Assembly (NCBI GenBank): GCA_016933575.1
Contig: JAFGAR010000064.1
Span: 40,851-104,850, forward strand
Source of the DNA: Candidatus Thorarchaeota archaeon
GTDB taxonomy: Archaea; Asgardarchaeota; Thorarchaeia; Thorarchaeales; Thorarchaeaceae
Length of the DNA stretch: 64,000 bases
Direction of reading: 5' to 3'
Shown: piece after piece, positions 1,511 to 37,633 of the stretch
Numbering within the stretch: position 1 is the first letter of the stretch
Layout: each line of letters opens with the position of its first letter
Notes under the pieces: model-generated
Seen by the model: only the letters and a program-made list of their open reading frames with translations
What the model was told of the DNA's origin: nothing
The model's database searches: none
Made by a program: the position numbers and the translations under genes

Positions 1511-1515
1511 AAATA

Positions 1516-10014: not shown

Positions 10015-10025
10015 AAACTCAATTT

Positions 10026-10061: not shown

Positions 10062-10077
10062 GATTTCTTGTTCGTAT

Positions 10078-13792: not shown

Positions 13793-13840
13793 TTCATGAA
13801 AATTATCCTCCATATAGCAGAACAGGTGAGATTGGAAAAT

Positions 13841-21585: not shown

Positions 21586-22809
21586 CTATTCGTAAATCTC
21601 CTCAAGTCCATCCCAAGTTAATCCCATTGCTTCTGCAACAAGGACCGCTAGGTCTTTGACAGTCTTGTTGCATCCCGCCTGTGGTAATTGATCTTTCATG
21701 TATTCCACACACGAAGGACATCCAGAAGCAACAACATCCGCTTGGGTCCTCTCTATATCCTGCGCTTTCAACTTCCCAATATCTGCGGCAAATTCGTGAT
21801 CAAAAGCCCGAAGGACACCACCACTTCCACAGCAATAACAATTATCCTTGTTATGCGGCAGTTCTTCGAACTCAACGCCGGGTAGAGCGGCAATGATATC
21901 TCGTGGTTCATCATAGAAACCTGAGTTACGTCCAGCATCACATCCATCATGATAAGTGAGTTTGATATTGAGGGGCTTTGTAAATTTGATCTTGTCCTGA
22001 TCTATGAGTTCCTTTATGTACGAATATCCATAGACAACTTCGAAACCATGATCAATATTCAGGAACTCTTTGTATTCATGAGCCCACATTTTGAAACAGC
22101 CCGGGCAATTTGTGATTATTCTCTTCACCCCAAGTTCCTTATATCTCTCGATGTTATGTTCTGCTAGTGTACGTGCGCCTTCAAAATCGCCAGTCATAAT
22201 CAACGGTGCTCCACAGCAATATTCCTCCTCGCCAAGGACTGTGTAATCCTCACCTATATTATCCATTATAAGCGTCGTTGCGATTGTTGCCTGAATTGAC
22301 ACACCTCTGTAAGATGATGAACATCCAAAGAAGAATGCAGTCTCTGCTGATTTTCCTTGTCTATTGAGAAGGTCATCTTCATTCGGTGTCCAATAGGACC
22401 ACCCTTCAATCCTATCCATCTGCGACTGACCCTGTATATTGCAGGTCTTGAGGAGGGTCTCTTTTGCAGTGTTCATTGACTCAGGCCACATACCACGTTT
22501 CATGAATTCTCCTCGAAGGACCTGGTAAATCTTGACGAAGGGTATGTCAGTCTGACAGATTTCCTCACAACCTCCGCAGAGCGTACAACCGAATATTGCA
22601 TCCTTTAAGCCTTCTAATCCATCTGTTGGACTTATTCTCCCTTGTATCAGCCCTCGAGCAAGAAGCATCTTGCCTCTCCCAGAATAGCTATCTACACGCT
22701 TTACTTTGTATGTCGGACAGGCTCCATGTCCAATCTGGCAATAGCTACATTGGGCACATATGTATGGAAATTCTTCGAGCCCATATTTCCGTAATGCTGG
22801 GAAGTCCAT
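21586..22809 (-). CDS. Fe-S oxidoreductase with two [4Fe-4S] motifs and two CCG domains (GlcF/HdrD-like)
   Basis: CAQCSYC..CP, CTLCGGCEEIC, FGC..YCCG..CPGC, YHDGC..CCG..CPSC. Confidence 0.9.
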   Translation of the reverse strand: MDFPALRKYGLEEFPYICAQCSYCQIGHGACPTYKVKRVDSYSGRGKMLLARGLIQGRISPTDGLEGLKDAIFGCTLCGGCEEICQTDIPFVKIYQVLRGEFMKRGMWPESMNTAKETLLKTCNIQGQSQMDRIEGWSYWTPNEDDLLNRQGKSAETAFFFGCSSSYRGVSIQATIATTLIMDNIGEDYTVLGEEEYCCGAPLIMTGDFEGARTLAEHNIERYKELGVKRIITNCPGCFKMWAHEYKEFLNIDHGFEVVYGYSYIKELIDQDKIKFTKPLNIKLTYHDGCDAGRNSGFYDEPRDIIAALPGVEFEELPHNKDNCYCCGSGGVLRAFDHEFAADIGKLKAQDIERTQADVVASGCPSCVEYMKDQLPQAGCNKTVKDLAVLVAEAMGLTWDGLEEIYE

Positions 22810-22871
22810 TATATGTCACTCCGGAGATTGGATTTGAACGACTTTGCGTGCTGTCCAATTAGGGTCTGCGT

Positions 22872-22958
22872 TGCCTAGCCGCCTTAAAACCTTTCTACAC
22901 GGTATTGAAATAATATCGCACAACGGTGTGCCTCGCTATGTTTTTATGCAACTAGGCA
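22872..22958. promoter_or_regulatory. Divergent promoter pair sharing a TTTT(T/A)A-N5-CTAGGCA arrangement
   Basis: Plus strand TTTTTA-TGCAA-CTAGGCA (22941-22958); minus strand TTTTAA-GGCGG-CTAGGCA (22889-22872). Confidence 0.55.
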
Positions 22959-23009
22959 TTCCCGGCTCTCTAAAACCCTCCTTAGGTTCAAAGCCTGGAG
23001 AGACAATTC

Positions 23010-24950
23010 ATGGGGCTCAAACATAAACAGATTGATCAGCTCAAAGAGATTTTTGGAGACCGTGTAGTCACGGCTAAACATGAGCTATTTCTTCAATCCA
23101 TGGATGTGGGTTCTCTTCCAAAGCAGGTTGGCTGGTTGATGAATCTCAAACCAGATGCTATCGTTCAACCAATGACCCCTGAAGAGATTCGTTCACTCTA
23201 TAAATTCGCAAATGCGGAAAAAATCCCTCTGGTTCCTAGAGGCGCAGGCACTTCTGGCTATGGTGGTGCAATACCACGAAAAGGAGGCGTTGTTGTTGAT
23301 ATGCGCCGTATGGATAATATTGTAACAGTTGATGAGAAGAATCTGACCGTTGTTGTAGAACCCGGTATCTGCTGGTCCAATCTTCAACTAGAACTCAATC
23401 GACTTGGTCTCGACCTACGCTGCTATCCCTCATCTGCCCTCTCCGCCACAGTTGGAGGCTGGGTAGCCCAAGGAGGCGATGGGATAGGTAGTTTGAAGTA
23501 TGGGACTATCAACAAGAACTGTGTTGAATTTGAAGTAGTTCTTCCAAATGAGAAGATAATTCGTACAAGTGATACAGATCTCTTTTGCGATACAGAGGGT
23601 ATCCTTGGTATACTGACAAAGGTAACCCTAAAGATTAAGCCCTTGACCAGGATCAAAGCCTTTGTCTCTAGCTTTCCAGAGAATTACCTAATGAATCTCG
23701 CAATCGAGAAGATTCTAGAAGACGGTCCACTCCCTTTCACAATAAAATTTGAAGAATCTAAATACACAGACTTGAAGAAGTCTGTCTGGGAGGAGGACTG
23801 GAAATTCCCGTATCCTGTTCATCACTGTACTATTATGGTCGTCTACGAAGGTGATGAAGAAGAGATCGAGACCGGTGCTGAAGTGGTTCGCCAAGTCACA
23901 GAGGCTCACAAAGGAGTCCTATATGATGACCATGTAGGCGAGCACGAGTGGCATGAGCGATTCTACCCAATGAGAATCAAGAAGGCCGGACCTACCCTTG
24001 TAGTTGGACAAGCATTTGCACCACTCGAAAACTTAGGTGCTATCTTTGATGACTTCCAGTTTGAACAGGCATCTGCGAAGGCAGGTATTGATGGTTATGT
24101 CAATTCTAAGAACGCAGTCACAATGATGGGATATTTTCTCGAAGATGAACGTCGTTCTTTCTATATGCTATCATGGTCTCAGAGCTTTGTCATTTTCAAA
24201 ATTGCGCAACGTCACGGTGGACATCCACATTCAACTGGTATATGGTTCGCTAATTATGCACATATTTACTTCGGCAAACAGAGATTAGCTCGAATCCGAG
24301 CAGCGAAGCTGAAGTGGGATCAAAAAGAGATTTCGAATCCTGGTAAAATCTTTGCATATTGGCTTCCCTTCATGTTACGTGTGGGCAAGTACTTCATGTG
24401 GATTGGTTTCGATTTGCTACGGAATGGTTTTGGCAGGATTGCACCAATTCTTCTGAAATGGCTTCAGAATGTACCACCACTGAAGTGGTTATTACGGTGG
24501 GGTCGCGCTCACAGTCCTTGGCCGATTCAATACGGACTCGGGTGTTGTATGGCTGATGGCGCAGCCGCAGTAGCATCACGATGGGATATAGAGAGATTCG
24601 GGATGCTCCCTCTCTTTGGACCCCGGCAGACGGATGTCCTTTGGATCTCAGGATCCCTTACAAAGAAGATGGCACCACGACTTCGTCGAATCTATGAACA
24701 GATGCCAGAGCCAAAGTATGTCATATCCTATGGCCAATGTGCAGCATCTGGTGGAATGTTTTTCGATGGATATTCTTTAATCGCTCCTGCTGATACGGTC
24801 GTGCCAGTGGACGTCTATATCCCCGGCTGTCCTCCCAAACCTGCTGACTTTGTGAGAGCTCACTTGATTTTACAGAACAAGATACGCGCTGGGACTACAC
24901 ACTGGCAAAAACGGTACGAGAATCAGGATTCGATGGGGTTGATTCAATAA
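23010..24950 (+). CDS. nuoB: Fusion: FAD-linked oxidoreductase (GlcD/D-lactate dehydrogenase family) + complex I subunit NuoB
   Basis: N-terminal PRGAGTSGYGG, EPGI, PSS..ATVGGW, LKYG, EGILGILTKVTLK, NPGK. C-terminal (from about 24480) WPIQYGLGCC, ERFG..PRQTD, IYEQMPEPKYVISYGQCAASGG, VPVDVYIPGCPPKP. Confidence 0.92.
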   Translation: MGLKHKQIDQLKEIFGDRVVTAKHELFLQSMDVGSLPKQVGWLMNLKPDAIVQPMTPEEIRSLYKFANAEKIPLVPRGAGTSGYGGAIPRKGGVVVDMRRMDNIVTVDEKNLTVVVEPGICWSNLQLELNRLGLDLRCYPSSALSATVGGWVAQGGDGIGSLKYGTINKNCVEFEVVLPNEKIIRTSDTDLFCDTEGILGILTKVTLKIKPLTRIKAFVSSFPENYLMNLAIEKILEDGPLPFTIKFEESKYTDLKKSVWEEDWKFPYPVHHCTIMVVYEGDEEEIETGAEVVRQVTEAHKGVLYDDHVGEHEWHERFYPMRIKKAGPTLVVGQAFAPLENLGAIFDDFQFEQASAKAGIDGYVNSKNAVTMMGYFLEDERRSFYMLSWSQSFVIFKIAQRHGGHPHSTGIWFANYAHIYFGKQRLARIRAAKLKWDQKEISNPGKIFAYWLPFMLRVGKYFMWIGFDLLRNGFGRIAPILLKWLQNVPPLKWLLRWGRAHSPWPIQYGLGCCMADGAAAVASRWDIERFGMLPLFGPRQTDVLWISGSLTKKMAPRLRRIYEQMPEPKYVISYGQCAASGGMFFDGYSLIAPADTVVPVDVYIPGCPPKPADFVRAHLILQNKIRAGTTHWQKRYENQDSMGLIQ

Positions 24951-25468
24951 TGGCACTACGCGAAGATAGCGAACCCTATTGCTTAGCTTGGGTTGGTTTC
25001 CTCTTGATGGGTGCATATTATGCCAATTTCGGATACCAACTATGGACCAATCCTGTTGCAGTATCTGCTTTCATCAACAACTCTCCCTCAATGCTAATCC
25101 TCCTTGGATTGCCTCCACTAATGGTGTTCCTGTTTACAGGGTACTTGCGACCTTCTCGTGGAAAAGCAAAGATGAGCATGCTAGGTCCCTCTGTCATTGC
25201 AGGATTGTTCTTCGTGATTATATCATATCAGGTTGGATCAACGACTACTATCCTCGGAGATCTGATAGTGTTTTCAGCATGGGGTATTGGAAGTGCTTTG
25301 TTGACAGCTGGAGGATTTTCAATTATGGCTTCTTTGGAGAAGAACACATCTCCTGGAATTATGGATATTAGTTCACTTCATTATGGTCCTGTAAAAGAAA
25401 CGCCTGCACCTACTGAGGAGTCAGTACCTCAAGGCTCCGATGTAAAGCCAGCGGAATCGGCACAATAA
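24950..25468 (+). CDS. Hypothetical 4-TM membrane protein, translationally coupled to the FAD-NuoB fusion
   Basis: TAATG stop/start overlap at 24948-24952; four hydrophobic helices and an acidic tail. Confidence 0.7.
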   Translation: MALREDSEPYCLAWVGFLLMGAYYANFGYQLWTNPVAVSAFINNSPSMLILLGLPPLMVFLFTGYLRPSRGKAKMSMLGPSVIAGLFFVIISYQVGSTTTILGDLIVFSAWGIGSALLTAGGFSIMASLEKNTSPGIMDISSLHYGPVKETPAPTEESVPQGSDVKPAESAQ

Positions 25469-25471
25469 TTC

Positions 25472-25846
25472 CTAGTCTGTTTCTGGAAGCCATGCGAGAG
25501 CCGCAAAGGCCAGCAATAATCCACAGGCCATCCAGAAAAAGAGTAGAGCTCCCATTAGACCTTCTGGAAAGAGCGTTATGATAAGGAATCCATGGACACC
25601 ACCTATGATTCCTGACAAAGTTGTCAGACTGACACGACCCGGTCTCGATTTGGTCCTTGCAAGAGCAAAAGTTGAGCATACGGTTACTATGCCACTCAGG
25701 AACAGAACTAGTTTAATCGCTATGTCTGAGATAGTAGCTGTTAGAATTATCCAGAAGTATACTCCAAGGAGTCCCATCCCAATAAGAAGGACCAAGTAAT
25801 AGAAAAATGTGCCACGGATGAATGACAACCAATTCGACCTCTTCAT
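25472..25846 (-). CDS. Hypothetical 4-TM membrane protein
   Basis: 124 aa, strongly hydrophobic; convergent with the previous gene. Confidence 0.65.
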   Translation of the reverse strand: MKRSNWLSFIRGTFFYYLVLLIGMGLLGVYFWIILTATISDIAIKLVLFLSGIVTVCSTFALARTKSRPGRVSLTTLSGIIGGVHGFLIITLFPEGLMGALLFFWMACGLLLAFAALAWLPETD

Positions 25847-26129
25847 TTGTTACTACGAGAAAGTCGAAGTGTTGTGCTGTATATTTAACTCCTTTGAGTG
25901 ATGTTTGTTTGGGCGAATGGTTTTTAACATGCATTCAGAATGCGCCTGCTTAAGTTCGAAAGTACGGAACGTGACCATAAATGGTGATGTGCTGTGCAAG
26001 CCAGGATCAAAGATGCGGAGCTTAGAGAATGAAACATTTGTGCACTGAAACCGCAAGAGATAGATATTGCAGACAAGAAGTCATTTTCCACAACTCACCT
26101 GGCGCTGAGTTTTCACTCTAGGAGGTCTA

Positions 26130-26582
26130 TTGATTACGATGAGGCTTTTCATCGATTTCTTCCCGGTGCTTGTCTGGGCAGTATTAGTTATTGTCCTGAT
26201 TCTCGGAATGTTAGTTGGATCTTGGGTATTGAGGCCTCATGTTCTCCAGAATAGTGAAAAGACATCGAGCTACGAATGCGGTGAAGAACCAATAGGCCCC
26301 GCAAGAATTGCCTATCCCTACAACTATCTTGTCTATACTATCCTGTTTGTTGTTGTTGATGTGCTTGGCGCATTTCTGTGGTTACTTGCTGCATCCTCTT
26401 TTCGATTGAGCCCGACAATCGTTTGGCAAGTCCTTGTATTTGTGCTGATTCTTATGGGTGGTCTCGGCTTTGCCATGAAGATGCTTCCCCAGACTTTCCT
26501 CAGTGGAAAAGAAACTCTAGCACTATATCGCGAAGCTAAGGCTGCAAAGGAAAAACAAGAGCTTGAAGCAGGAGGTCACTGA
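26130..26582 (+). CDS. nuoA: Complex I-like subunit A
   Basis: KTSSYECGEEP loop, LFVVVDV, 3 TM; GGAGG RBS at 26121. Confidence 0.9.
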   Translation: MITMRLFIDFFPVLVWAVLVIVLILGMLVGSWVLRPHVLQNSEKTSSYECGEEPIGPARIAYPYNYLVYTILFVVVDVLGAFLWLLAASSFRLSPTIVWQVLVFVLILMGGLGFAMKMLPQTFLSGKETLALYREAKAAKEKQELEAGGH

Positions 26583-26586
26583 AGAG

Positions 26587-27231
26587 ATGCAACTCGATAT
26601 ATGGTTTGAAGAGGCTGAGTTCATTGTAATTGCTGCCATTGTCATTTTTCTTGCATACCTTGCACTGGAACATCGTGACATTGTCTACGCGGCATTCTTT
26701 TTTGGCTTCATGGCCTCTTTTGTTGCTGGTTTCTTTCTATTGCTTGAAGCACCTTTCATTGCAGGTATGCAGATCGCTGTATACACTGGAGGGATTAGTG
26801 CATTGATAATCTTCGCAGTGCTTCTTCTACCCCGAGCCCAAGACTCTTCCTTGGAGGTCTTCGCTTCGCCTAGAAGAAGGAATGCTGGATTGGTACTATC
26901 AGCGATGGTTGGCTCATTGTCAGCAGCCCTAGCCCTCGTTTTTCCATGGTACGAAACTTTCTCATCAGTGACTCCGCCACTTGAGAACAATCTTGAACTT
27001 CTCTCAAAATGGCTCTGGTCTGATCATGGTATCTATGTTCAGATGATTGCTCTCATCCTTCTCACAGCAATTGTTGGATCTATTGCTATTTTGAAGATGG
27101 AGAAAGCAGAACGTCTCACACCTATAGTAAGTGATTTTGGTGTTGAGTCAGTTCCTGAACCAATTGATGACGAAGCATCTGATATTGAAGATGAATCCCC
27201 GCAGAATGGGACTGAGGAGGTTGATACATAA
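26587..27231 (+). CDS. nuoJ: Complex I-like subunit J
   Basis: LEAPFIAGMQIAVYTGGI motif; 5 TM; ATG at 26587 preferred over the longer listed start. Confidence 0.88.
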   Translation: MQLDIWFEEAEFIVIAAIVIFLAYLALEHRDIVYAAFFFGFMASFVAGFFLLLEAPFIAGMQIAVYTGGISALIIFAVLLLPRAQDSSLEVFASPRRRNAGLVLSAMVGSLSAALALVFPWYETFSSVTPPLENNLELLSKWLWSDHGIYVQMIALILLTAIVGSIAILKMEKAERLTPIVSDFGVESVPEPIDDEASDIEDESPQNGTEEVDT

Positions 27232-27551
27232 TGGTCCCCCTCTCCTGGTATCTGGTGGTGGCGTTCATTCTCATAGGTCTCGGAATCTATGGAATGATGG
27301 TCAAGCGAAATCTCATACGTATTCTAATTGGAGCTGAAATCCTTGGTAATGGAGTCAACATTGCCCTAGTTGCTGTTTCAATCTACAGCCCTGTCTTCAC
27401 ATTTACGGGACAGGGTTTACTCATGCTGGTGATCTCTGTGGCAGCAGCTCACACAGCTCTTGCGATGGTTCTGATGCTTATTTACAATCAACGATACAAA
27501 TCAGTTGACCTTGGTAGACCATTCAAACTGGAGGATGATAGCAATGCCTGA
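27231..27551 (+). CDS. nuoK: Complex I-like subunit K
   Basis: IGLGIYG..KRNLIRILIGAEI, VAAAH; 3 TM. Confidence 0.9.
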   Translation: MVPLSWYLVVAFILIGLGIYGMMVKRNLIRILIGAEILGNGVNIALVAVSIYSPVFTFTGQGLLMLVISVAAAHTALAMVLMLIYNQRYKSVDLGRPFKLEDDSNA

Positions 27552-28053
27552 TGCATCGTCACTGGGTCGTGCAATCATCAATAAGCTGCCTGAGGTCGAG
27601 TCTAAACCACTTCAGGGAAATAAGATCGAGCTCCTGGTCCCTCATGAGAAAATTCGAGATGTGGTATCACTTATTGACGAATTGGTTCCCGATGCCTTAC
27701 CCGAATCTGCATTTGGCATTGATCTTGAGGATGACAAATACGAAGTAGTCTACATATTTTGGTCTCATGAATCAACGATGCTCTGTCAGTTACGAGTTTC
27801 ACTTGTAGGGGAGAAACCATCAATTCAGACTGTTAGCGACATATTTCCTGGGTTGGAATGGCATGAGCGTGAAACTAGTGAGATGTTCGGTATCACCTTT
27901 GAGAACCATCCTGACATGAGACCTCTCCTGCTGCCTGATGATTTGGTTGGAAAATATCCCATGAGAAAACGATTCAAGACCGATCGAAGTCGCCTTGAAG
28001 AAACTGGCCTTTCAACCCCTAGTCCTAGACCTGAACGTGGAGGTGGCGAATGA
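27544..28053 (+). CDS. nuoC: Complex I-like subunit C
   Basis: IFPGLEWHERETSEMFGITFENHPDMRPLLLP..YPMRK. Confidence 0.9.
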   Translation: MPDASSLGRAIINKLPEVESKPLQGNKIELLVPHEKIRDVVSLIDELVPDALPESAFGIDLEDDKYEVVYIFWSHESTMLCQLRVSLVGEKPSIQTVSDIFPGLEWHERETSEMFGITFENHPDMRPLLLPDDLVGKYPMRKRFKTDRSRLEETGLSTPSPRPERGGGE

Positions 28054-29190
28054 ATGTGTCCAGATATCCTTGATGAAACCAGTGAGATCTGGTTTGGTCC
28101 TCAACATGTCAGTGCTCATGGGTGGGCTACAAAACTGAAACTTGTTGGAGACTACATTGTCGAGTGTGACCCGAATGCTGGATATTTCCATCGTTCGGCT
28201 GAAAAATGTCTAGAGTTCCGTAATTTCAGGCAAGGTTCAATGGTATGTGAACGTATCTGCATGATGGAAGCATTCGTTGCAGAATATCCCTATGTGGCTG
28301 CAGTCGAGAAGATTGTTGATCTTGAGGTCCCAGAACGCGCGAAAATCATGCGTACTATCATGATTGAGATGAATCGGATTCATTCTCTTCAGTTTTGGTG
28401 GGGTCAATTTGCAGGGGAGTTAGGTCTCTTTGCGATGCTGCTTTGGCCCTGGGTTGATAGAGAATATACACTTGATGCTTTTGAGGAACTGACTGGGTCT
28501 CGTCATACTGTATCCTATGTCACACCTGGCGGGGTTAAGTATGATTTCACTCCCAAGTTCTTGGAAAAATTTGAAATTGCACTCTCTAGAGTGGAAGAAC
28601 GAATCCCGATCTTCAAGGACATGTTTCTTGGTAGCCCTACGTTCAGGTTACGTACCGAGGGAGTAGGTCAGTACACTGCAAAACAAGGTCTCAAGTGGGG
28701 CTTGAGTGGTCCTAATATCAAAGCTTGTGGTATTCCAATGGACCTCCGTAAGGATGACCCTGACTCGAATCTTGCATATGATATGATTGATTGGGAAGTA
28801 CCCATTACAATAAACGAGAATCATCCTGGTGAATGCGATGCATTTGACAGACTAGTTCAGCGATTCAAAGAAATTGAGACTTCAGTTGGTATTATCAGAA
28901 AGCTCTTACCTCTTGTCCCTGAAGGTCCAATCATTGACCCCAAGGCTCGAGCCAAAGTCAATCGTCTACCTGAAGGAGAGGGTTATGGTAGGATTGAGGG
29001 TACTCGTGGAATCACAACCGTTTGGTTGAAGACATTCGATAAGGCTCAGACTCCATATAGAGCCAAAATACGTGGTCCTTGCTTCGCATCATATTATGCA
29101 TTGAAGCATATTGTGCCAGGTGCTCGTTTTGCGGACTTTCCAGCGATATTTGGAAGCTTGGATCCTTATCCCGGGTGGTGGGACAGATAG
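28054..29190 (+). CDS. nuoD: Complex I-like subunit D (no NiFe site)
   Basis: FGPQHVSAHG, GYFHRSAEK, EMNRIHS, GSR, EGTRG, PYRAKIRGP, C-terminal GSLDPYPGWWDR; lacks both CxxC NiFe motifs. Confidence 0.9.
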   Translation: MCPDILDETSEIWFGPQHVSAHGWATKLKLVGDYIVECDPNAGYFHRSAEKCLEFRNFRQGSMVCERICMMEAFVAEYPYVAAVEKIVDLEVPERAKIMRTIMIEMNRIHSLQFWWGQFAGELGLFAMLLWPWVDREYTLDAFEELTGSRHTVSYVTPGGVKYDFTPKFLEKFEIALSRVEERIPIFKDMFLGSPTFRLRTEGVGQYTAKQGLKWGLSGPNIKACGIPMDLRKDDPDSNLAYDMIDWEVPITINENHPGECDAFDRLVQRFKEIETSVGIIRKLLPLVPEGPIIDPKARAKVNRLPEGEGYGRIEGTRGITTVWLKTFDKAQTPYRAKIRGPCFASYYALKHIVPGARFADFPAIFGSLDPYPGWWDR

Positions 29191-29203
29191 GAGGTGCGAT
29201 GAG

Positions 29204-30349
29204 ATGCAGTTCGATTTCATAACTTGGCTTGACGGGCTTTATAATTGGTTCATCGGTCTCTTGATCTGGTTTTGGAATGTCATTGAATGGTTCTTCTTTT
29301 GGATCATTGATCTTATCAATGGAGTATGGGCCATAGTAATAATCCCTGAGAATTTCATGTTTCTATTCCGTTCTATTATATTCCCTGGACTCATCTTCAT
29401 CGTGCTTGCACTCATTTTCAGTATCTGGTTCATCCGGAAGACATGGGCACGAATTCAGGATAGACGTGGACCGACACATATGGGCAAGTATGGTGGTCTA
29501 CAATTGTTTGCGGATGCAATCAAACTCATGGCTAAGGAAACAATAATTCCCGACAAGGCAAGACGTTGGGCTTATAGGATTCTACCTTCGTTACTCCTCT
29601 TAATTGTACTACTTCCCTTCGCATTCATACCCTGGGATCCAATATGGAATATTCTTGGAAATCCTGCCTTTCCCGACCTTTCTGTGAGCCTAGTGCTAGT
29701 CTTTGCATTTCTCACTGCAGTGCCTGTACTCTCACTACTAATCGGTTGGGTCTCAGGTTCCAAGTATTCTCTGATTGGAGGATTTCGAGCTGCAAATAAC
29801 CAATTTGCCTCCGAGATACCCATGGTCATTTCTTCTATTGGTCCTGCAATGCTTGCTGGTTCTCTGAGTCTCTTCGGAATTGTTCAAGCGCAGACCAGCA
29901 TCTGGTACATTGTTCTTCTCCCAATCAACTTTACCACCTTCATGGTTGCTGCAATTGCCTCTGTAGGAACGTTTCCCTTTGATGCTCCCGTTGCAGACTC
30001 CGAGATTATCTTCGGGTGGCGAACAGAGCTATCGGGCATCTACTTCACGTTGGTCTATTTTGCTGAGTTTGCCGAACAAATGCTTTACTCAGCCTTAATG
30101 GTTGTACTCTTCTTTGGTGGTTTTAATGGACTTCCATTCTTACCAGGAATTGTCAATTTCCTAATCAAGTGGCTTGTCGTATTATTCATCTTTGTAGTTG
30201 TGACATCTTCCTTCTATAGAATCAGACAGGACCAGATAGTGCACCTTTGTTGGAAATACTTACTGCCACTTTCAATACTTAATGTAGTTCTTGTCATGTT
30301 TGCAGTTGTCTACATACCAGGACTACTTCCGCTTGTGATAGGAGGATAA
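29204..30349 (+). CDS. nuoH: Complex I-like subunit H
   Basis: ARIQDRRGP, GGLQLFADAIKLMAKE, SKYSLIGGFR, PFD..SE..G..TE.SG, RIRQDQ..CWK; GGAGG upstream. Confidence 0.92.
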   Translation: MQFDFITWLDGLYNWFIGLLIWFWNVIEWFFFWIIDLINGVWAIVIIPENFMFLFRSIIFPGLIFIVLALIFSIWFIRKTWARIQDRRGPTHMGKYGGLQLFADAIKLMAKETIIPDKARRWAYRILPSLLLLIVLLPFAFIPWDPIWNILGNPAFPDLSVSLVLVFAFLTAVPVLSLLIGWVSGSKYSLIGGFRAANNQFASEIPMVISSIGPAMLAGSLSLFGIVQAQTSIWYIVLLPINFTTFMVAAIASVGTFPFDAPVADSEIIFGWRTELSGIYFTLVYFAEFAEQMLYSALMVVLFFGGFNGLPFLPGIVNFLIKWLVVLFIFVVVTSSFYRIRQDQIVHLCWKYLLPLSILNVVLVMFAVVYIPGLLPLVIGG

Positions 30350-30353
30350 TGCG

Positions 30354-30785
30354 ATGGGTTTCCTAAGTAATCTTGGTGAAATATTTCAAATCCTGAAACA
30401 CGTCTTTCGTCAAACATTCAAAAGACCATTCACTTACTTCTATCCATTTGAAGACAGACCTTATCCTGAGAGAACCCGTGGCAGACACATCCACATTCGT
30501 GAGAACTGTACTGCATGTGCTCAGTGTGTGAGAGCATGTCCTGTTGCAGCAATTCGTATTGACAAGGAAGATAGAAAGTTCGAGAAGGATGCAGCTCTCT
30601 ATTTTGATTATACGCGTTGCATTTTCTGCGGAGATTGCGTCAGTGCCTGTCGATTCGATGCACTTTTCCATACGAAAATCGTGGACCTCTCGGAGGGTGA
30701 CCGTGATGACCTTATCTATGGCCCTGATAAGATAACAAAACTCGATAGAGACCCTCTTGAGTGGCGTGGAAGGAGGTTCAGGTAG
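30354..30785 (+). CDS. nuoI: Complex I-like subunit I (2x[4Fe-4S])
   Basis: FTYFYPFE, RGRH, CTACAQCVRACP, CIFCGDCVSAC. Confidence 0.92.
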   Translation: MGFLSNLGEIFQILKHVFRQTFKRPFTYFYPFEDRPYPERTRGRHIHIRENCTACAQCVRACPVAAIRIDKEDRKFEKDAALYFDYTRCIFCGDCVSACRFDALFHTKIVDLSEGDRDDLIYGPDKITKLDRDPLEWRGRRFR

Positions 30786-32284
30786 TGTTGTTTGGAATTC
30801 CCTTCATGGCACTATCACTCGCCGTGATGTTCATCGGAGGTCTCTTCATCTACCTGTTCAAGGCTAGCATTGGCGATGCAGCTGGTAGAATTGCAGTTGC
30901 TGTGTCTCTTGTAGGAACCATCCTGATGATTCCTCCATTCTACGAGCTCATGATGTTTGGCTCATCCGTTGAAACAGCAGTATGGTCAAATCTACTTGAG
31001 CCATTTGGGCTGTACTTGGATCCAATTGCATTTCCAATCACTTTTGCTGTAGTAGTTCTTGGATTTCTATCAGTTGTCTATGCGGTGGGTTATACCAAAC
31101 ATACTGAGAACAAACCTACTTTTTTCGCAAATCAATTGTTCTTCATAATGGGAATGACATGGGTAACTCTTGCGACTAATATGATCGAGTTCTTTATAGC
31201 TTGGGAGCTTATGTTGGTGCCAAGCTACTTCCTGATTCTGTTCTGGGGTTTCCCTGAAACCAGAAAACGTACTGCTCTGAAATTCTGGTTGTACACACAA
31301 TCTGGAGCTGTCTGTATCCTGATAGGCTTTGGACTTCTCTATGCTCAGGGTGGTTCATTTGTTCTGGCAAATATTGTTGCTAATGGTGACCTCATCTTCA
31401 AGGTCATTTTCATACTTCTAGCTGCTGGATTCCTTGTGAAAATGGCAGTTTTCCCAATCCACTGGTGGTTACCACCAGTTCATGCTGAGGCTCCAACTCC
31501 AATCTCAGTCCTATTGTCTGGTGCTATGATTGAAACCGGCGCCTATGCTCTGGTACGATTCGGTACCCTGACCCTTTACGATGCAGCGATATCGCTCTCA
31601 ATCTGGGTAGCTGCACTCGGTGTTATCACGATGTTCTATGGCGGTTTCATGGCACTAGCTCAGGTGGACATCAAGAGACTCCTTGCTTACTCCTCCGTTT
31701 CACAGATGGGGTACGTACTATTTGCTCTCGGTTCTGTTACAATCATAGGTGTTTCAGGTGGAATGTTCCATCTCATCAATCATGCTTTCTCAAAGGGTCT
31801 GCTGTTTATGACCGCTGGAGCTGTTATTCATCAGACCGGACTTCGTGATATTAAGAAGATGGGAGGTCTCTCAAATAAGATGCCTATCACCGCCTTCGCA
31901 GCTGCCATCGGAATGATGAGCATTGCCGGTAGTCCTCCGCTCTCCGGATTCGCTTCGGAGTGGATGATGTTCCTCGGGGGATTTAATCGTGCTATAATTA
32001 CCGATCCATTTACCCATATTGTCCTAGGAACTAACTTACCATTTCTGATTTTAGCAATTTTAGCTGTTTCCAGCTCTATCCTCAGCGCAGCATACATGCT
32101 TCGTTTCTTCTGGCGAGTCTTCCTTGGGCCTCATCCCGAAGAGCTCGAAGATGTTAAGGAAAGTCCAAGATCCATGACCATTCCGATGATCATCCTTGGT
32201 GTCCTCATTGTAATCTTTGGAATATTCCCGAGCTTGGCACTAGATGTCATTGTCCCGGCGTTTTCGAGTGCACTTGGTCCGTGA
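30785..32284 (+). CDS. Extra antiporter-like proton-conducting subunit (NuoM/MrpD/HyfB-like)
   Basis: AWELML, VKMAVFPIHWWLPPVHAEAP, DIKRLLAYSSVSQMG, HAFSKGLLF, GFASEW; probable GTG start overlapping the nuoI stop. Confidence 0.88.
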   Translation: MLFGIPFMALSLAVMFIGGLFIYLFKASIGDAAGRIAVAVSLVGTILMIPPFYELMMFGSSVETAVWSNLLEPFGLYLDPIAFPITFAVVVLGFLSVVYAVGYTKHTENKPTFFANQLFFIMGMTWVTLATNMIEFFIAWELMLVPSYFLILFWGFPETRKRTALKFWLYTQSGAVCILIGFGLLYAQGGSFVLANIVANGDLIFKVIFILLAAGFLVKMAVFPIHWWLPPVHAEAPTPISVLLSGAMIETGAYALVRFGTLTLYDAAISLSIWVAALGVITMFYGGFMALAQVDIKRLLAYSSVSQMGYVLFALGSVTIIGVSGGMFHLINHAFSKGLLFMTAGAVIHQTGLRDIKKMGGLSNKMPITAFAAAIGMMSIAGSPPLSGFASEWMMFLGGFNRAIITDPFTHIVLGTNLPFLILAILAVSSSILSAAYMLRFFWRVFLGPHPEELEDVKESPRSMTIPMIILGVLIVIFGIFPSLALDVIVPAFSSALGP

Positions 32285-32294
32285 GGTGAATCAA

Positions 32295-34547
32295 ATGCTC
32301 TTTGGTCTACCAGAATATCTAATCATCGTCATTCCACTTGCAGGTTCCTTATTTGTCCCAATAATTGGGAGGTATAGTACTCGTGCTAGAGACTGGACTC
32401 CTGCATTGTTGATGGGCATCTCTATGATTCTATGCTGGTCTCTCATACCTGACATTGGATCAGTCCCTAAGACCTGGAATTGGATCAACATTCCTGGACT
32501 TGTGATTCCCTTTAGTATGCTTCTTGACTCACTGTCCGTCATCATGGGTGTACTTGCTAGCACGCTCTGTTTTCTCATATACGTGTACAGCACCGAGTAC
32601 ATGGCACACGAGGGAGATAGAGACCGCTTCTTCTTCCTGATGCTTGCCTTCGGGGGTGGTATGCTTACCCTGGTCCTCTCAAACAACCTCCTGATTGCGT
32701 TTATTGGATGGGAGATCATGGGATTTTGTAGTTACGGACTCATTGGTTTCTGGAATGACAAGCGCAATCCTCCAGAGGTAGACCCAACTGGCTATGAGTC
32801 AAGTAATCCGTTGCTGCAGTTCAAGACCGAGGGCGAGTACAATACTCATTGCGGAACAAAGGCTTTCGTGGTAACAAGAATTGGTGACGCACTGATGCTG
32901 GGCGGCATCCTGCTTCTATTTACATTCACAGGGTCATTTCTCTTTCAAGACACATCAATTGGAAGTCAGGCTGTTGAAGGTATTGCAGAACATGGCGGCT
33001 GGATAACTGCCCTAGCTGGTGTGGGTCTTCTGTTGCCCACGCTTTTGTTAATCTTTGCTGGCGCGATTGGAAAGTCAGGTCAATTCCCTCTGCAGGTATG
33101 GCTCCCCGAAGCCATGAGTGGTCCGACTGCGGTTTCTGCTTTGATTCATGCTGCAACCATGGTCAAAGCAGGAGTCTATATCACTGCAAGATTTCTCTTG
33201 ACAATCGTATCTGCTACAGAGACAAGCGGACACTCTTCATCTGCTATTGGGATGTTTCCGCTACAGATAGGCTTCCCTGATGCGTTCACCTTCTTTGCCA
33301 TAGTTGCAATCGTTGGTGCTCTCACCGCATTCATTACTGGTACAATGGGAATGGTCTCAAATGAACTGAAGCAGGTGTTGGCATTCTCAACTCTTAGCCA
33401 ACTAGGCTATATGATGCTTGCAATAGGTACTGCTGGCATGTTGACGCATTATGATGTTGCTTATCTGAGTAGCGTCATGCATGTCGTCAGTCATGGTGCA
33501 TTCAAAGCGTTGCTGTTTCTCTCATCTGGTGGGATTATCCACGCGTTACATACCAAGTATATGAGTAAGATGGGCGGGTTGAAGAAGTATATGCCCAAGA
33601 CCTTTGCGCTTATGTGGATTGGAGTGCTAGCGTTGTCAGGAATTCCTCCATTCTCAGGTTTCTGGTCAAAAGACTCAATCATAGAGCATGTATATGCACT
33701 TGGTGTTGAAACGCCTCTGGGAATTTTCCTGTTCATTCTTGCTATCGCAGCTGCGGCTTGTACAATCTTCTATAGCATTCGACTCATGGGAATGGTCTTC
33801 TATGGCCCATCAGAGTTTGACGAACATGACCAAGAGGAGGAATCAATCAGTAGCCATAATGACAAAGAGGAATCCGAAGAATCTCATGACGAACATCGCG
33901 GGGTACCCTCTGATCCAGGTCCAGCTATGATGATTCCGCTCTACATTCTAGCAGCATTCACTATCATTGCCTTCATAATCTATCCAATGATACAGAATAT
34001 TGTCCTCCAGACTAATAGGGACTTGTTTATCATATTTCTTGAGGATATGGTAGCTGCGAAATTTGGTCCAGAAGGTTTAGTTCCCTTCACACTCACCATT
34101 GGAGCACTTGCTCTTGGTGGGATTCCAGCCTATTGGATTTACATTAAAAACCAAGATACTCCAAACTCAATCATTCCAGAGAATGGAATTCTTAGGAAGT
34201 TGCACAACTTCTTGAAGCACCGCTGGTATATCAATGAGGGATACTATTGGTTTGTCAACAAGTTCCTCAGATTTGCTGATCTCTGGCGCAGGGAGATTGA
34301 TGAGCCTATAATTGATGGCATTGACTTCAAGTCTGCAGCCACAGCCCAGGTACTTGCGACTAAGATTCGATGGTTTGATGATAATGTTGTGGATGGTTTT
34401 GCTGAGGCCGTGTCAACAAAGAGTGTTGAAGCTTCTGAGGTTGGACTTGAGTCTCAGACAGGAAAGATCAATGACTACGTCGGAGTGGTGATTTTCGGAG
34501 TAGGTCTCCTGATCATCATTGGACTTCTATCATTGGGGGTGCTCTAA
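32295..34547 (+). CDS. nuoL: Complex I-like subunit L
   Basis: GWEIMG..SY.LIGFW, KAFVVTRIGD, GKSGQFPLQVWLPEAMSGPTAVSALIHAATMVKAG, GFWSKD, C-terminal lateral-helix region ending QTGKINDY. Confidence 0.93.
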   Translation: MLFGLPEYLIIVIPLAGSLFVPIIGRYSTRARDWTPALLMGISMILCWSLIPDIGSVPKTWNWINIPGLVIPFSMLLDSLSVIMGVLASTLCFLIYVYSTEYMAHEGDRDRFFFLMLAFGGGMLTLVLSNNLLIAFIGWEIMGFCSYGLIGFWNDKRNPPEVDPTGYESSNPLLQFKTEGEYNTHCGTKAFVVTRIGDALMLGGILLLFTFTGSFLFQDTSIGSQAVEGIAEHGGWITALAGVGLLLPTLLLIFAGAIGKSGQFPLQVWLPEAMSGPTAVSALIHAATMVKAGVYITARFLLTIVSATETSGHSSSAIGMFPLQIGFPDAFTFFAIVAIVGALTAFITGTMGMVSNELKQVLAFSTLSQLGYMMLAIGTAGMLTHYDVAYLSSVMHVVSHGAFKALLFLSSGGIIHALHTKYMSKMGGLKKYMPKTFALMWIGVLALSGIPPFSGFWSKDSIIEHVYALGVETPLGIFLFILAIAAAACTIFYSIRLMGMVFYGPSEFDEHDQEEESISSHNDKEESEESHDEHRGVPSDPGPAMMIPLYILAAFTIIAFIIYPMIQNIVLQTNRDLFIIFLEDMVAAKFGPEGLVPFTLTIGALALGGIPAYWIYIKNQDTPNSIIPENGILRKLHNFLKHRWYINEGYYWFVNKFLRFADLWRREIDEPIIDGIDFKSAATAQVLATKIRWFDDNVVDGFAEAVSTKSVEASEVGLESQTGKINDYVGVVIFGVGLLIIIGLLSLGVL

Positions 34548-36128
34548 TTGCAGGTAGACTCTACAACTTTGATAACAAGTATTCCAATGAATATCCTCGT
34601 CCTCATACTTGTCATTCCTCTAGTTGGTGCGGTCCTTGCATACATCGCAGGCAGCAAGGGTGCACGTGCAATCACACTCCTGATTACGACACTCGAACTA
34701 GGCTTAGCCCTTCTACTCATTCTAGGTACTCCTTCAGTTGGTCCAGATCCTGGTGGAATGAGTTACACATGGATCTATACGATTGCGAGACTTGGAACCA
34801 CTGTTGATTCTCCTGTCTTTCAAATCATTCTTGGTGTTGATGGAATCTCAGTAGTAATGATCCTCCTCTCCAATCTCGTCGTATGGATTGCAGCAATTGC
34901 ATCAAATCATATCAAGAACGCAGAAGGTGTATACTACTCCTTATTCCTGCTCCTGCAGACAGGCCTCCTTGGAGTTTTTGTATCTCTTGATCTCATTGGA
35001 TTCTTCATCTTTTGGGAACTTGTCCTTGTACCAATGTTTTTCATCATTGGCAGATGGGGCGAAGATGGAAGCAGACACGCGGCTATCAAGTTCTTCATCT
35101 ATACTCATCTTGGTTCTGCAGTAATGCTCGTTGGATTCTTCTACATCTATTTCATGTCTTATCAGTTCAATATTCTTGGATATCCAACTGCAGTCCCAAC
35201 ATTCAGCATGGTTGCGCTTCGGAACATCGGACTTGACCCAACCATTCAGATAGGTTTTGCTCTTGCCATATTCATGGGTGCAGGCGTGAAACTTCCAGTA
35301 TTTCCATTACATAACTGGTTGCCATGGGCTCACGTAAAGGCACCAACTCCTGGTTCAGTTATCCTCGCTGGAATTCTTCTGAAGATGGGTGGGTATGCAT
35401 TCATCAGACTCGGACTTTGGATGGTCCCAGAAGCAATGGCTAGACTTGCCATTCCCTTTGCCTTTGTGGCTGTCTTCACATGTATCTACGCTGCATTTAC
35501 CGCACTTGCTCAGACTGATATGAAGAGCCTTGTAGCTTATACGTCTATCAACCACATGTCATGGGTCCTACTTGGCGTTGCTGCGTATGCGGCTGCCTAC
35601 AATTCTCCAGATGCAGCTATTCGAGCTGCTGCGAACTTGGCTATCCAAGGTTCTATATTCATGATGTTCTCACACGGCACCATAATCTCTGTCATGTTCA
35701 TTGTAGCTGGGCAGCTCAAATATAGTGTAGGTACTCGTGAGATTCCCGAAGTTAAGGGATTGATGACACAGGCTCCTAAACTCTCAGCGATTATGATCAT
35801 TGCTACCTTGGCAGCTTTCGGTCTTCCTGGATTTAGTGGATTCATAGCAGAGGCACTGGTCATCTTTGGAGCCATTGTCATTCATCCGTGGACCGCATTC
35901 ATCGCGTTTGGCATTTTCTTGACAGTAGGCTACATGCTCTGGATGTTAAATCGAATTGTCTTTAGTGATATTGACCCCGAAAAAAGCGTGAATGAAGCCG
36001 CACGAAGCGATCTCATTGCTCCAATCCTCATGTTAATTCCTGTGATTCTGCTTGGGATTTGGCCTGATCTGATATTGAATCTCGTTCAACCAGTTGTTGA
36101 ACTGATGCTGAGCGGAGGTTTACCATAA
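34548..36128 (+). CDS. nuoM: Complex I-like subunit M
   Basis: GVDGIS, FWELVLVPM, VKLPVFPLHNWLP.AHV.AP, LLKMGGY, GFIAE; TTG start abutting nuoL. Confidence 0.92.
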   Translation: MQVDSTTLITSIPMNILVLILVIPLVGAVLAYIAGSKGARAITLLITTLELGLALLLILGTPSVGPDPGGMSYTWIYTIARLGTTVDSPVFQIILGVDGISVVMILLSNLVVWIAAIASNHIKNAEGVYYSLFLLLQTGLLGVFVSLDLIGFFIFWELVLVPMFFIIGRWGEDGSRHAAIKFFIYTHLGSAVMLVGFFYIYFMSYQFNILGYPTAVPTFSMVALRNIGLDPTIQIGFALAIFMGAGVKLPVFPLHNWLPWAHVKAPTPGSVILAGILLKMGGYAFIRLGLWMVPEAMARLAIPFAFVAVFTCIYAAFTALAQTDMKSLVAYTSINHMSWVLLGVAAYAAAYNSPDAAIRAAANLAIQGSIFMMFSHGTIISVMFIVAGQLKYSVGTREIPEVKGLMTQAPKLSAIMIIATLAAFGLPGFSGFIAEALVIFGAIVIHPWTAFIAFGIFLTVGYMLWMLNRIVFSDIDPEKSVNEAARSDLIAPILMLIPVILLGIWPDLILNLVQPVVELMLSGGLP

Positions 36129-37633
36129 TGCTGCAATTAGACATCTTGCTTGACAGCCTAAGGGCTTTATTAGCCCCTCTAAGAGACCTATTGCTCGCAA
36201 TTGTACCAGCTGAATGGATCATGTCCCTTCCTGCTATTACTCTGGTAGTCTTTGGATTACTTGCCCTAATGGTCGGACTTCGATATAATCCATTAGTCAT
36301 AAGCTTCATCGGTGTCATTCTTGCAACATTTGAGATGCTTCTGTTCGATCCCAGTGCTATGAGTGGCTATTCGTTTGGAACATTATTCATTCGCGATGCT
36401 TTCACCGATTTCTTCATCTACATTGTTCTTATCGTTGCTTTCCTAGTCTTGCTCTCTTCCACTCTTTGGGGGGGTGACAAAGGGACCTACAATTTCCTAC
36501 TTCTCCTCTCTTTTGCAGGAGCTCTCTGGGTAATTATGGCGACAGATCTTGTAGCTCTATTTCTTGCCTGGGAACTGATGTCCACGCCAACTTATGTTCT
36601 CGTTGCTCTTAGTCCAAGACGGGAATCTGTAGATGGCGCTACAAAATACTTCGTTATGGGCTTGCTTGCAACAAACCTCATGCTACTTGGCATTGCTCTG
36701 ACTATTGGTGTTACTGGAACCACTGACCTTCACACCATTGGAGTGTTCATTAATAGCCTATGGGCTTCACCAGCTGGTAGTGAACCAGCGGTCTACACAA
36801 TGCTTCTTGCAATGGTCTTGTTTATTGTTTCATTCGGATTCAAGGTCGGTATATTTCCTGGATGGCAATGGGTTCCTGATGCATATGCAAGTGCTGATGG
36901 TAGTGTCACTGCTTATCTTGCAGGAGGTTCTAAAAAGACAGGAGTGAGTGCCCTTCTACGAATCTTGATGGTTGCATTCTTTGTTGCTAGGACTGAGTGG
37001 ACTCTATTAATAGCTGGTGTAGCAATCCTAACAATGATCATTGGTAATCTATTAGCTCTCGCTCAGAAGGATATCATGAGGATGTTAGCGTATTCCAGCA
37101 TTGCGATGATGGGTTATCTCTTCATTGGTATCGCCGCAGCTAACGAATTGGGCATGGCTGCAGCTAGTTTTCATGCATTCACTCATGCAATAATGAAGAC
37201 AGCTGCCTTCATCCTTGTGTGGATGCTATCTTTAAGACTCACGAAGAGAATAACCTATGATGACCTCGCGGGATTGAACAAGCGAGCACCCATTGCAGCA
37301 GCTATGTTTGCCATACTGATGCTCTCTCTTGCAGGACTTCCTGTAGGTGTAGGGTTCTGGTCAAAATTAGTACTCTTCCAGAGTGCAATCCTCGCAGACA
37401 TGTGGTGGTTGGCTTTGATAGGTCTCTTGAACTCAGTCTTCTCCTTGGGCTATTATTTACGAATACTGAAATATACTTACATGATTGAACCTGTTGATGA
37501 CTCGAAATTAAATCTACCAAGAGTACCCCTATTTGCAGTAGGCATTTGTGTAGCTATTGTTCTCTTGCTGTTGGTATTTCCAAACCTTGTCCTTGATTAT
37601 GCCTTTCAAGCGGCATTGACCTTCTTCCCATAG
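36128..37633 (+). CDS. nuoN: Complex I-like subunit N
   Basis: AWELMS..Y.L, TKYFVMG, FKVGIFP..WVPDAY, RMLAYSSI, GFWSK, YYLR. Confidence 0.92.
   Translation: MLQLDILLDSLRALLAPLRDLLLAIVPAEWIMSLPAITLVVFGLLALMVGLRYNPLVISFIGVILATFEMLLFDPSAMSGYSFGTLFIRDAFTDFFIYIVLIVAFLVLLSSTLWGGDKGTYNFLLLLSFAGALWVIMATDLVALFLAWELMSTPTYVLVALSPRRESVDGATKYFVMGLLATNLMLLGIALTIGVTGTTDLHTIGVFINSLWASPAGSEPAVYTMLLAMVLFIVSFGFKVGIFPGWQWVPDAYASADGSVTAYLAGGSKKTGVSALLRILMVAFFVARTEWTLLIAGVAILTMIIGNLLALAQKDIMRMLAYSSIAMMGYLFIGIAAANELGMAAASFHAFTHAIMKTAAFILVWMLSLRLTKRITYDDLAGLNKRAPIAAAMFAILMLSLAGLPVGVGFWSKLVLFQSAILADMWWLALIGLLNSVFSLGYYLRILKYTYMIEPVDDSKLNLPRVPLFAVGICVAIVLLLLVFPNLVLDYAFQAALTFFP

Follow-up and report, generated by a model that had tools for sequence, protein, structure and literature searches.

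A NuoB-flavoprotein fusion in a complex I-like pump of the Asgard family Thorarchaeaceae: a candidate tethered redox partner

We analysed a 64,000-nucleotide stretch of DNA from a Candidatus Thorarchaeota archaeon, here called the window, in which positions 21586-37633 encode a complex I-like pump whose NuoB subunit is fused to a flavoprotein. NuoB forms the C-terminal part of a 646-amino-acid (aa) chain that starts with a flavin adenine dinucleotide (FAD)-binding enzyme domain, and a gene for an iron-sulfur (FeS) protein with CCG domains is transcribed divergently from it. New here are the covalent joining of a flavoprotein to NuoB, the confinement of this architecture to about twelve genera, and the flavoprotein subfamily, which carries no name; the parts themselves belong to known families and the idea of HdrD/GlcD partners for such pumps has already been published. 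We see about an even chance that the tethered FAD/FeS/CCG module acts as the second redox partner of the pump, beside ferredoxin. The window belongs to contig C38 of a 3.47-Mb genome (G000) of 215 contigs and 85.5% completeness. The features that carry the finding are the following.

23010..24950, plus strand: fusion open reading frame (ORF), 646 aa, a single uninterrupted frame
23010..24350, plus strand: flavoprotein domain, aa 1-447 (Pfam, AlphaFold2 (AF2), Foldseek)
24351..24476, plus strand: amphipathic linker, aa 448-489 (AF2 helices, hydropathy, conservation)
24477..24950, plus strand: NuoB domain, aa 490-646, with four N2 cysteines (Nqo6 alignment, NCBIfam)
21586..22809, minus strand: CCG protein, HdrD/TfrB/GlcF-like, 407 aa (Pfam CCG 107.2 bits in two stretches, and Fer4_8)

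On the fusion protein, Pfam placed FAD_binding_4 at residues 48-187 (E 6.6e-38, 130 bits, cut-off 26.4), FAD-oxidase_C at 231-447 (E 7.1e-09) and Oxidored_q6/NuoB at 512-617 (E 1.6e-24, 86.5 bits, cut-off 27). The pair of FAD-binding oxidase domains named in the original prediction, which was made from the letters of the DNA, is thus present on the same chain as NuoB, and the NPGK element reported at its end proved to be a subfamily motif. The NuoB part scored above the cut-offs of two NCBIfam NuoB subfamily models (NF005012, 180.7 vs 116; TIGR01957, 173.2 vs 142.7), and residues 491-628 aligned better with Nqo6 of T. thermophilus (149 bits) than with MbsJ (105) or MbhJ (96). The motifs with the N2 ligands, GLGCC, GQCAASGG and PGCPP, are in register with those of Nqo6 and are conserved in the fused orthologues. 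Judged from these alignments, the C-terminal part is a true complex I-type NuoB with the four N2 cysteines that had been assigned to it. Public annotations name the fusion protein just 'NuoB'.

The connection between the two halves, described earlier as an uninterrupted amphipathic linker, is confirmed as such by its single frame, its hydropathy and its modelled helices. Residues 448-489 are strongly amphipathic as measured by the hydrophobic moment, and the maximum 19-residue hydropathy of 1.05 rules out a transmembrane helix. AF2, run with a 75-sequence alignment, gave a per-residue confidence (pLDDT) of about 90 over residues 1-450 and placed helices in the linker region at 452-472, 474-487 and 491-501. 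Among 43 fused orthologues, conservation was 0.88 for the linker, 0.82 for the flavoprotein and 0.92 for NuoB. The first part of the linker is an amphipathic C-terminal tail common to the flavoprotein subfamily and is older than the fusion. The last 10-15 residues or so derive from the N-terminal extension of Asgard NuoB, as seen in alignments with free NuoBs and with the tails of the unfused flavoproteins of genus g14 discussed below.

Two adjacent genes read as one, through assembly or gene calling, would give the same picture, and in one relative (G334) the gene is split into two overlapping frames. The locus in question (L034) has both the fusion gene (8239-10193) and nuoD (13649-14786) broken in this way; because nuoD is split too, the assembly evidently carries frameshifts, and the splits look like assembly errors rather than biology. 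To see how general the junction is, we covered 400 Asgard genomes, 86 of the family of the window and 314 of other families. One open frame spanned the junction in 56 of the 86 family genomes, and these 56 all belong to genera g1-g12. The match extended over the whole 646 aa in one frame and without stops in 51 of them, and five more gave contig-end fragments that cross the junction. No match spanning both halves was found in the 314 genomes of other families. The three-domain chain first seen in the window therefore recurs, with about 47 protein clusters (90% identity) that contain all three domains, are 73-93% identical to the query and are nearly all 646 aa long.

Sequence data of separate origin agree with this. 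A Logan contig from a possible source run spans the region, and in a 331-nt contig of another study (90-95% alike) linker and NuoB are joined without an indel. Neither this contig nor the 51 genomes contain the stop or frameshift in the linker that would speak against a fusion. With full-length genes in 51 genomes, fragments across the junction in five more and an independent-study contig that reaches into NuoB, an artefact is practically negligible as an explanation.

A search with the NuoB part among proteins of 355-1131 aa returned 52 matches, namely 47 thorarchaeal fusions (one a contig-end fragment), four proteins of the NuoBCD type and one 405-aa protein with NuoB only; this search rests on shared 5-residue words, and distant fusions could be missed by it. 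NuoD of the window type occurs in 60 of the 85 other family genomes, all of them in g1-g12, and in none of the 15 genomes of g13-g16. This distribution matches that of the fusion, related genomes not being independent observations. The fusion is thus conserved, and it is confined to a single lineage of about twelve genera within one Asgard family. Other Asgard families (G311, G015) have the same type of operon, fourth antiporter-like gene included, but in them nuoB stands free, and the fusion was therefore derived within the Thorarchaeaceae. The closest free NuoBs are 58-67% identical and belong to other Asgard families (G397, G003).

Within the family, genus g14 (G385, G386) encodes the CCG protein followed by an unfused flavoprotein of 498-499 aa with 58-59% identity, at 7510-10378 of L032 (G385) and 8072-10941 of L033 (G386). 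No nuo operon of the window type was found in the g14 genomes. The g14 flavoprotein tails can be aligned over the full length of the linker, and their last residues are ...FPPLKW(I/L)RN, a position just inside the segment that matches the N-terminal extensions of free Asgard NuoBs (WLQ..., LKK/LKW...WGR). The unfused gene probably goes back to a fused ancestor that was secondarily truncated, with the pump being lost as well. Separate domains in relatives had been named as a finding that would count against the fusion; g14 does have the flavoprotein unfused, but its tail carries the start of the NuoB-derived segment.

The region 21586-37633 consists of three transcription units, the CCG gene on the minus strand and the fusion unit and the nuo operon on the plus strand. 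Downstream of the fusion gene lie the following genes.

24950..25468, plus strand: 172-aa membrane ORF of no known family (hydrophobic segments)
25472..25846, minus strand: 124-aa polytopic membrane ORF of no known family (hydrophobic segments)
26130..26582, plus strand: nuoA (Pfam Oxidored_q4)
26563..27231, plus strand: nuoJ (Pfam Oxidored_q3)
27231..27551, plus strand: nuoK (Pfam Oxidored_q2)
27505..28053, plus strand: nuoC (Pfam)
28054..29190, plus strand: nuoD (Pfam)
29111..30349, plus strand: nuoH (Pfam NADHdh 291.6 bits); the true start is probably further downstream
30354..30785, plus strand: nuoI, 2x[4Fe-4S] (Pfam Fer4; NCBIfam NuoI matches below cut-off)
30761..32284, plus strand: extra M-like antiporter protein (Pfam Proton_antipo_M)
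32244..34547, plus strand: NuoL, 767 aa, with a long C-terminal extension (Proton_antipo_M; TIGR01974, 460 vs cut-off 407.5)
34548..36128, plus strand: M-like antiporter protein (Pfam Proton_antipo_M)
36128..37633, plus strand: N-like antiporter protein (Pfam Proton_antipo_M)

The fusion gene lies outside the nuo operon, and the antisense 124-aa ORF sits between the fusion unit and nuoA. The stop codon of the fusion overlaps the start of the 172-aa membrane ORF, an arrangement of translational coupling. The order of the CCG gene, the fusion gene with the 172-aa ORF, the 124-aa ORF and nuoA to nuoN is identical in a relative whose locus is on a single contig (G320), and four antiporter-like genes are also present in G320, G397, G311 and G015. 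A Pfam scan of the locus found neither nuoB nor nuoEFG in the operon (26130..37633), and no FrhB-family gene, in agreement with the claim that the operon is devoid of nuoB, nuoEFG and fpoF. The FpoD model gave NuoD of the window a score of 246.5 against a cut-off of 600, and no gene of the FpoF type is present at the locus.

A canonical nuoB or a NuoF elsewhere in the genome would have offered the pump conventional partners, and neither turned up. Complex1_51K (NuoF) had no match in the genome. Oxidored_q6 gave six matches, the fusion and five others, each of which adjoins a [NiFe] large subunit. A free NuoB can be ruled out within this assembly of 85.5% completeness, as the five other NuoB-family genes encode [NiFe]-hydrogenase small subunits. 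Of these five, the one with the highest score lies in a nuoA/B/C/D/H/I-like cluster on contig C57; the large subunit of this cluster is 30% identical to NuoD of the window and keeps RICGICS and DPCFSC, by which the cluster is recognised as a group-4-type hydrogenase and not as the source of a spare NuoB. The fused NuoB is thus supported by genome content as the sole candidate NuoB for this complex. The six-gene C57 cluster (L007, 9792-13912, outside the window) is without an antiporter-like gene; immediately upstream of it are genes for HgdA/B- and HgdC-like 2-hydroxyacyl-CoA dehydratase, for an AMP-dependent ligase and for a UbiA-family protein.

The flavoprotein had been assigned to the GlcD/Dld family. 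This assignment holds for the fold, which is closest to that of mLDHD (Foldseek TM score 0.83), followed by LctD and AGPS, and by sequence and model the protein is a member of the VAO/PCMH superfamily with FAD_binding_4 and a two-domain fold. It does not hold at the level of the family. Scores with curated models were far below cut-off for GlcD (TIGR00387, 131.3 vs 567.9), NF008408 (87.8 vs 897), YdiJ (67 vs 1350) and GlcE (30.2 vs 284). Furthermore, single-sequence and profile alignments with LctD and mLDHD revealed no counterpart of the His-His-Glu metal site (H..DGN.H, GEHG.G). The corresponding places are occupied by NSKNAVTMMGY, without a histidine, and by GGHPHSTG, with Pro or Ala at the Glu position. 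The scores and the metal ligands together rule out a canonical GlcD or D-lactate dehydrogenase. The W..R motif persists at W314/R317, in which R317 is the equivalent of the carboxylate/substrate-binding arginine. The metal- and substrate-binding roles of these residues are those described for the LctD and mLDHD reference enzymes.

The subfamily is defined by the motifs EW.ERFYPMRIK, DER, GG..(Y/H)S.G.W and NPGK. Among 75 members, the FAD loop PRG..G..GG and residues G150, W151, G156, G158 and G160 are invariant. The members include proteins of bacteria (labelled as Thermincola and Thermanaeromonas, for example) that are about 1000 aa long and end in Fer4 and CCG domains, the 867-aa protein P0062 (Hydrothermarchaeota label) with an N-terminal NrfD/PsrC-type membrane anchor, and thorarchaeal paralogues with hydrophobic tails. 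No subfamily member scored above the cut-off of any curated family, and an Atlas search with the flavoprotein part returned generic names or none. Based on sequence, this is an unnamed flavoprotein subfamily that has repeatedly been wired to CCG, NrfD or NuoB modules.

The absence of the His/His/Glu ligands of LctD and mLDHD, with GlcD, GlcE and YdiJ models far below cut-off, could also mean that the domain is catalytically inactive and has become a structural or regulatory appendage of NuoB. However, the same substitutions occur throughout the subfamily, including stand-alone members and members fused to Fer4 and CCG domains, which points to a different chemistry and not to decay. The FAD loop is invariant as well, and the domain is well kept among the fused orthologues, at the conservation given above. 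A dead domain is therefore very improbable.

The protein encoded by the divergent gene was described as having 2x[4Fe-4S] and two CCG domains. We find exactly these, an N-terminal 2x[4Fe-4S] domain (Fer4_8) and two CCG domains with complete CX35CCX35-36CXXC signatures. The cysteines C18/21/24/31, C75/78/81/85, C163/198/199/235/238 and C290/326/327/364/367 are invariant or at least 90% conserved. The best NCBIfam match was TfrB (168.8 vs a cut-off of 385), and GlpC (114.2 vs 278), GlcF (54 vs 333), HdrB (56.6 vs 345) and DsrK (59.3 vs 400) were likewise below cut-off. The CCG orthologues are 61-85% identical within thorarchaeal genomes, after which identity drops to 35%. The gene is the divergent neighbour of the fusion in seven of eleven relatives' loci, searched with 1.5-kb flanks, and also in G320.

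To examine whether the two proteins can be predicted to interact, we modelled the flavoprotein with its linker (residues 1-500) together with the CCG protein, using a separate alignment for each. The predicted complex scored 0.87-0.88 in three runs, whereas the best of three controls scored 0.00; in a calibration set, 58 of 80 solved complexes and two of 110 mismatched pairs attained this score mark. The runs agreed in at least 96% of contacts, and pLDDT of the CCG partner was at least 89. On the flavoprotein side, the predicted interface is formed by the FAD loops (79-81, 142-145) and by subfamily motifs (318-330, 379-381), and on the CCG side by residues 13-68 and 84-88, i.e., the 2x[4Fe-4S] domain. 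The models support binding of the CCG protein to the flavoprotein through its ferredoxin-like domain, beside the FAD loops.

NuoD of the window has RICMME and DPYPGWW at the places of the two [NiFe] CxxC pairs, and the lack of both pairs in the large subunit rules out a group 4 [NiFe] hydrogenase. The equivalent of His38 is kept (GPQHVSAHG), and a Met stands at the place of Tyr87/Tyr144, with RICMME aligned to RLDYVS of Y. lipolytica. In quinone-reducing complex I, the quinone head group is bound by His38 and Tyr87, as numbered in T. thermophilus. The best solved relative of NuoD is 6u8y_L (205 bits vs 183 for complex I 49-kDa subunits), labelled 'NADH dehydrogenase subunit D'; we take 6u8y to be MBS (membrane-bound sulfane reductase). 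All Asgard Nuo-type NuoDs examined (window, L043-L046), with NuoB fused or free, have Met or Phe at the Tyr site and keep the His of the beta1-beta2 loop. Loss of Tyr87 as a result of the fusion can be ruled out, since the relatives with free NuoB share the Met or Phe.

How might these parts work together? In the arrangement that we consider to have an even chance, the 646-aa protein would supply the NuoB subunit, with cluster N2, to a pump that has no NADH or F420H2 module. The flavoenzyme would be permanently tethered to the pump by the amphipathic linker at the N-terminus of NuoB, and would form a heterodimer with the HdrD-like protein, giving a module in which electrons may pass between FAD, 2x[4Fe-4S] and 2x CCG clusters in that order. 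Ferredoxin would exchange electrons at NuoI, and the tethered module would do so at the N2 end, in the role otherwise played by the quinone pool. The whole could then act, in either direction, as a ferredoxin:(organic acid or disulfide) oxidoreductase whose turnover is coupled to the translocation of ions. The N-terminus of NuoB is near the membrane and the Q site in published structures, a position that would fit a tether at the N2 end. Because the fusion replaces the sole NuoB, every complex carries the enzyme 1:1. What we infer from this architecture is that electrons pass between the module and the Nuo chain and that ions are pumped, and the direction of transfer and the kind of substrate are likewise part of the proposal. 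The logic would be the same as that of the Fpo-like/HdrD hypothesis for quinone-free methanogens.

Searches for carrier biosynthesis genes gave no match for the MqnA/D family in G000 and five good relatives, no MenD above cut-off in G000 and four relatives, and no CofH (F420 synthesis) in G000 and four relatives. A more specific version, which we put forward tentatively, is a quinone-free and F420-free pump that works with ferredoxin and with a covalently attached FAD/FeS/CCG enzyme at the N2 end, and that would be the first hard-wired 'complex I + HdrD/GlcD' converter. If this is true, energy could be conserved in fermentation, with ions pumped while an organic acid or disulfide is reduced. 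In the opposite direction, the ion gradient could drive electrons uphill from an organic substrate to ferredoxin, which could then serve CO2 fixation.

Several observations weigh against a tethered redox partner. The absences are provisional because the genome is 85.5% complete. Four FrhB-family genes are present in the genome, all away from the locus, as are two UbiA-family genes, and a membrane carrier may exist. The fusion is transcribed as a unit apart from the nuo operon. In four of the eleven relatives' loci the CCG gene is missing from the 1.5 kb beside the fusion, and in G334 it is 7 kb off. The unfused g14 pair occurs without the nuo operon, and the module can therefore exist and work alone. 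Relatives with free NuoB have the same NuoD pocket, so that pocket chemistry is independent of the fusion. Finally, AF2 modelled the NuoB part of the fusion poorly (pLDDT below 50), and no model places a module cofactor within electron-transfer distance of the N2 or NuoI clusters.

Complex I relatives are known to swap their electron-input modules, and the original prediction regarded the flavoprotein and CCG protein as such a module. Electrons would then flow from the substrate to the flavoprotein, the [4Fe-4S] clusters of the CCG protein, NuoI, N2 and finally a membrane acceptor in the NuoD/NuoH pocket, the same acceptor as in Asgard relatives with free NuoB. The base complex of other Asgard families, which has the same NuoD pocket and no module, fits an addition on the input side, as does the lack of a NuoF/FpoF-type module at the locus. 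The invariant FAD-binding residues (75 members), the retained R317 and the flavoprotein-CCG interface, predicted with high confidence, are all compatible with a working dehydrogenase of this kind. On the other hand, no menaquinone or F420 synthesis genes were found, which leaves the acceptor without a candidate, and the tether is at NuoB, whereas the input modules of known complexes are attached to NuoI or NuoC. Moreover, the 2-hydroxyacid potential is about -190 mV, and a donor resembling a 2-hydroxyacid would provide little driving force for a pump with four antiporter subunits. An input module is for these reasons somewhat unlikely, but it is the strongest of the alternatives.

The flavoprotein and CCG protein could also make up a peripheral membrane dehydrogenase in its own right, for which NuoB would be an anchor or a handle in assembly, with no electrons passing between this enzyme and the pump, in the way that accessory enzymes ride on mitochondrial complex I. 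The occurrence of the module alone in g14 and as a single polypeptide in bacteria agrees with mere co-localisation, and so do the amphipathic tail, which is found throughout the subfamily and predates the fusion, and the location of the fusion gene and the nuo operon in different transcription units. Yet the sole NuoB is the one replaced, making the enzyme obligatory at 1:1. The fusion has also been kept without a stop in 56 genomes and 12 genera with a linker as conserved as the domains, and its occurrence matches that of the nuo operon. We regard co-localisation without electron exchange as unlikely.

Among known systems, the 11-subunit ferredoxin-dependent relatives of complex I (Fpo-like complexes of Methanothrix and Methanomassiliicoccales, and photosynthetic NDH-1) are similar to the pump of the window in having homologues of NuoA, B, C, D, H, I, J, K, L, M and N and no NuoEFG. 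Unlike these forms, the pump of the window has its NuoB fused to a 450-aa flavoprotein, a fourth antiporter-like subunit and a NuoD without the Tyr87 equivalent, and no F420, menaquinone or FpoF context was found for it. MBS (6u8y) and membrane-bound hydrogenase (MBH) of Pyrococcus are further relatives; 6u8y_L is the best solved match of NuoD, and these two proteins each have one Cys in an 'RIC' motif and no [NiFe] site. The membrane arm, however, is of the Nuo type (A, H, J, K, L, M, N) and not of the Mrp type, and NuoB is nearer to Nqo6 than to MbsJ.

The flavoprotein resembles LDHD, LctD and GlcD in fold, FAD-binding domain and the W..R motif with the substrate Arg equivalent, and differs from them in that the two metal His and the Glu are not conserved and the GlcD score is 131.3 vs 567.9. 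A parallel to the flavoprotein-CCG pair is provided by single-chain FAD-Fer4-CCG dehydrogenases (the type of the E. coli D-2-hydroxyglutarate dehydrogenase YdiJ, and the ~1000-aa proteins P0083 and P0097), in which the partner domains are likewise 2x[4Fe-4S] and 2x CCG. Bacterial proteins of this kind such as P0083 and P0097 carry the same flavoprotein subfamily motifs, and the predicted interface matches a split version of their architecture. In the window, by contrast, the FeS/CCG part is a separate gene and the C-terminus is NuoB; the YdiJ score is 67 vs 1350.

The pairing of an Fpo-like complex with HdrD is said to go back to Lang 2015 and Vanwonterghem 2016, which PMC10667645 cites for the idea. 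An Fpo-like complex with HdrD (or HdrD/GlcD) is hypothesised there for Methanomassiliicoccales, Methanomethylicia, Bathyarchaeia and Korarchaeia, the association being inferred from gene content or proximity and GlcD being fused to HdrD (PMC10667645). The system of the window has in common with it a complex I-like pump that lacks an input module, together with an HdrD-type CCG protein and a flavoprotein with a GlcD-type fold, and is unlike it in that the flavoprotein is joined to NuoB, the CCG protein is separate, there is no methanogenesis context and the flavoprotein is not a canonical GlcD. The main text of an archaeal fusion survey names only NuoBC and NuoBCD fusions (PMC11237513). No description of a flavoprotein-NuoB fusion was found in the searched literature; supplementary tables, outside the search, may list it.

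Closure of the electron circuit in quinone-free archaea has so far been a hypothesis drawn from gene content (Fpo-like complex + HdrD). A conserved covalent fusion to the N2 subunit sets the stoichiometry at 1:1 and defines where the flavoenzyme is attached, so that structural work or enzymology can address the question directly. The fusion also bears on how Asgard archaea, the prokaryotes most closely related to eukaryotes, conserve energy, and points to a widespread, uncharacterised flavoprotein subfamily wired to membrane electron-transfer modules.

A different association was observed in another Asgard family. Locus L037 of G003 contains, at 247-4463 and 6205-10030, a flavoprotein-CCG-flavoprotein trio distinct from the pair of the window, 2-5 kb from nuoJ/K/N and from a divergent nuoA-nuoB pair whose free NuoB is 58% identical. 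The trio may be a non-covalent version of the same association, or may be there by chance.

The two small membrane ORFs next to the fusion gave no Pfam or NCBIfam match, and an Atlas search with the 172-aa ORF did not identify a family. The 172-aa ORF is kept downstream of the fusion in G320 and G334 (41% identity) and, at more than 40% identity, in six of eleven relatives' loci; it is possible that its product is an extra subunit or an anchor. The 124-aa ORF is kept in G320 (52% identity) and G334 (33%), and in nine of eleven relatives' loci. GGR and polyprenyl synthetase genes adjoin the CCG/flavoprotein pair in G000 and in g14, and were not found within 2.4 kb beyond the CCG gene of G320. 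Directly after the last nuo gene lies one further feature, which as a neighbour of the operon is also present in the single-contig relative G320.

37686-38237, minus strand: Ras-family small GTPase

Elsewhere in the window, a full-length catalase gene is located at 8542-10014 on the plus strand (Pfam E 1.2e-196), in a genome otherwise of anaerobic type.

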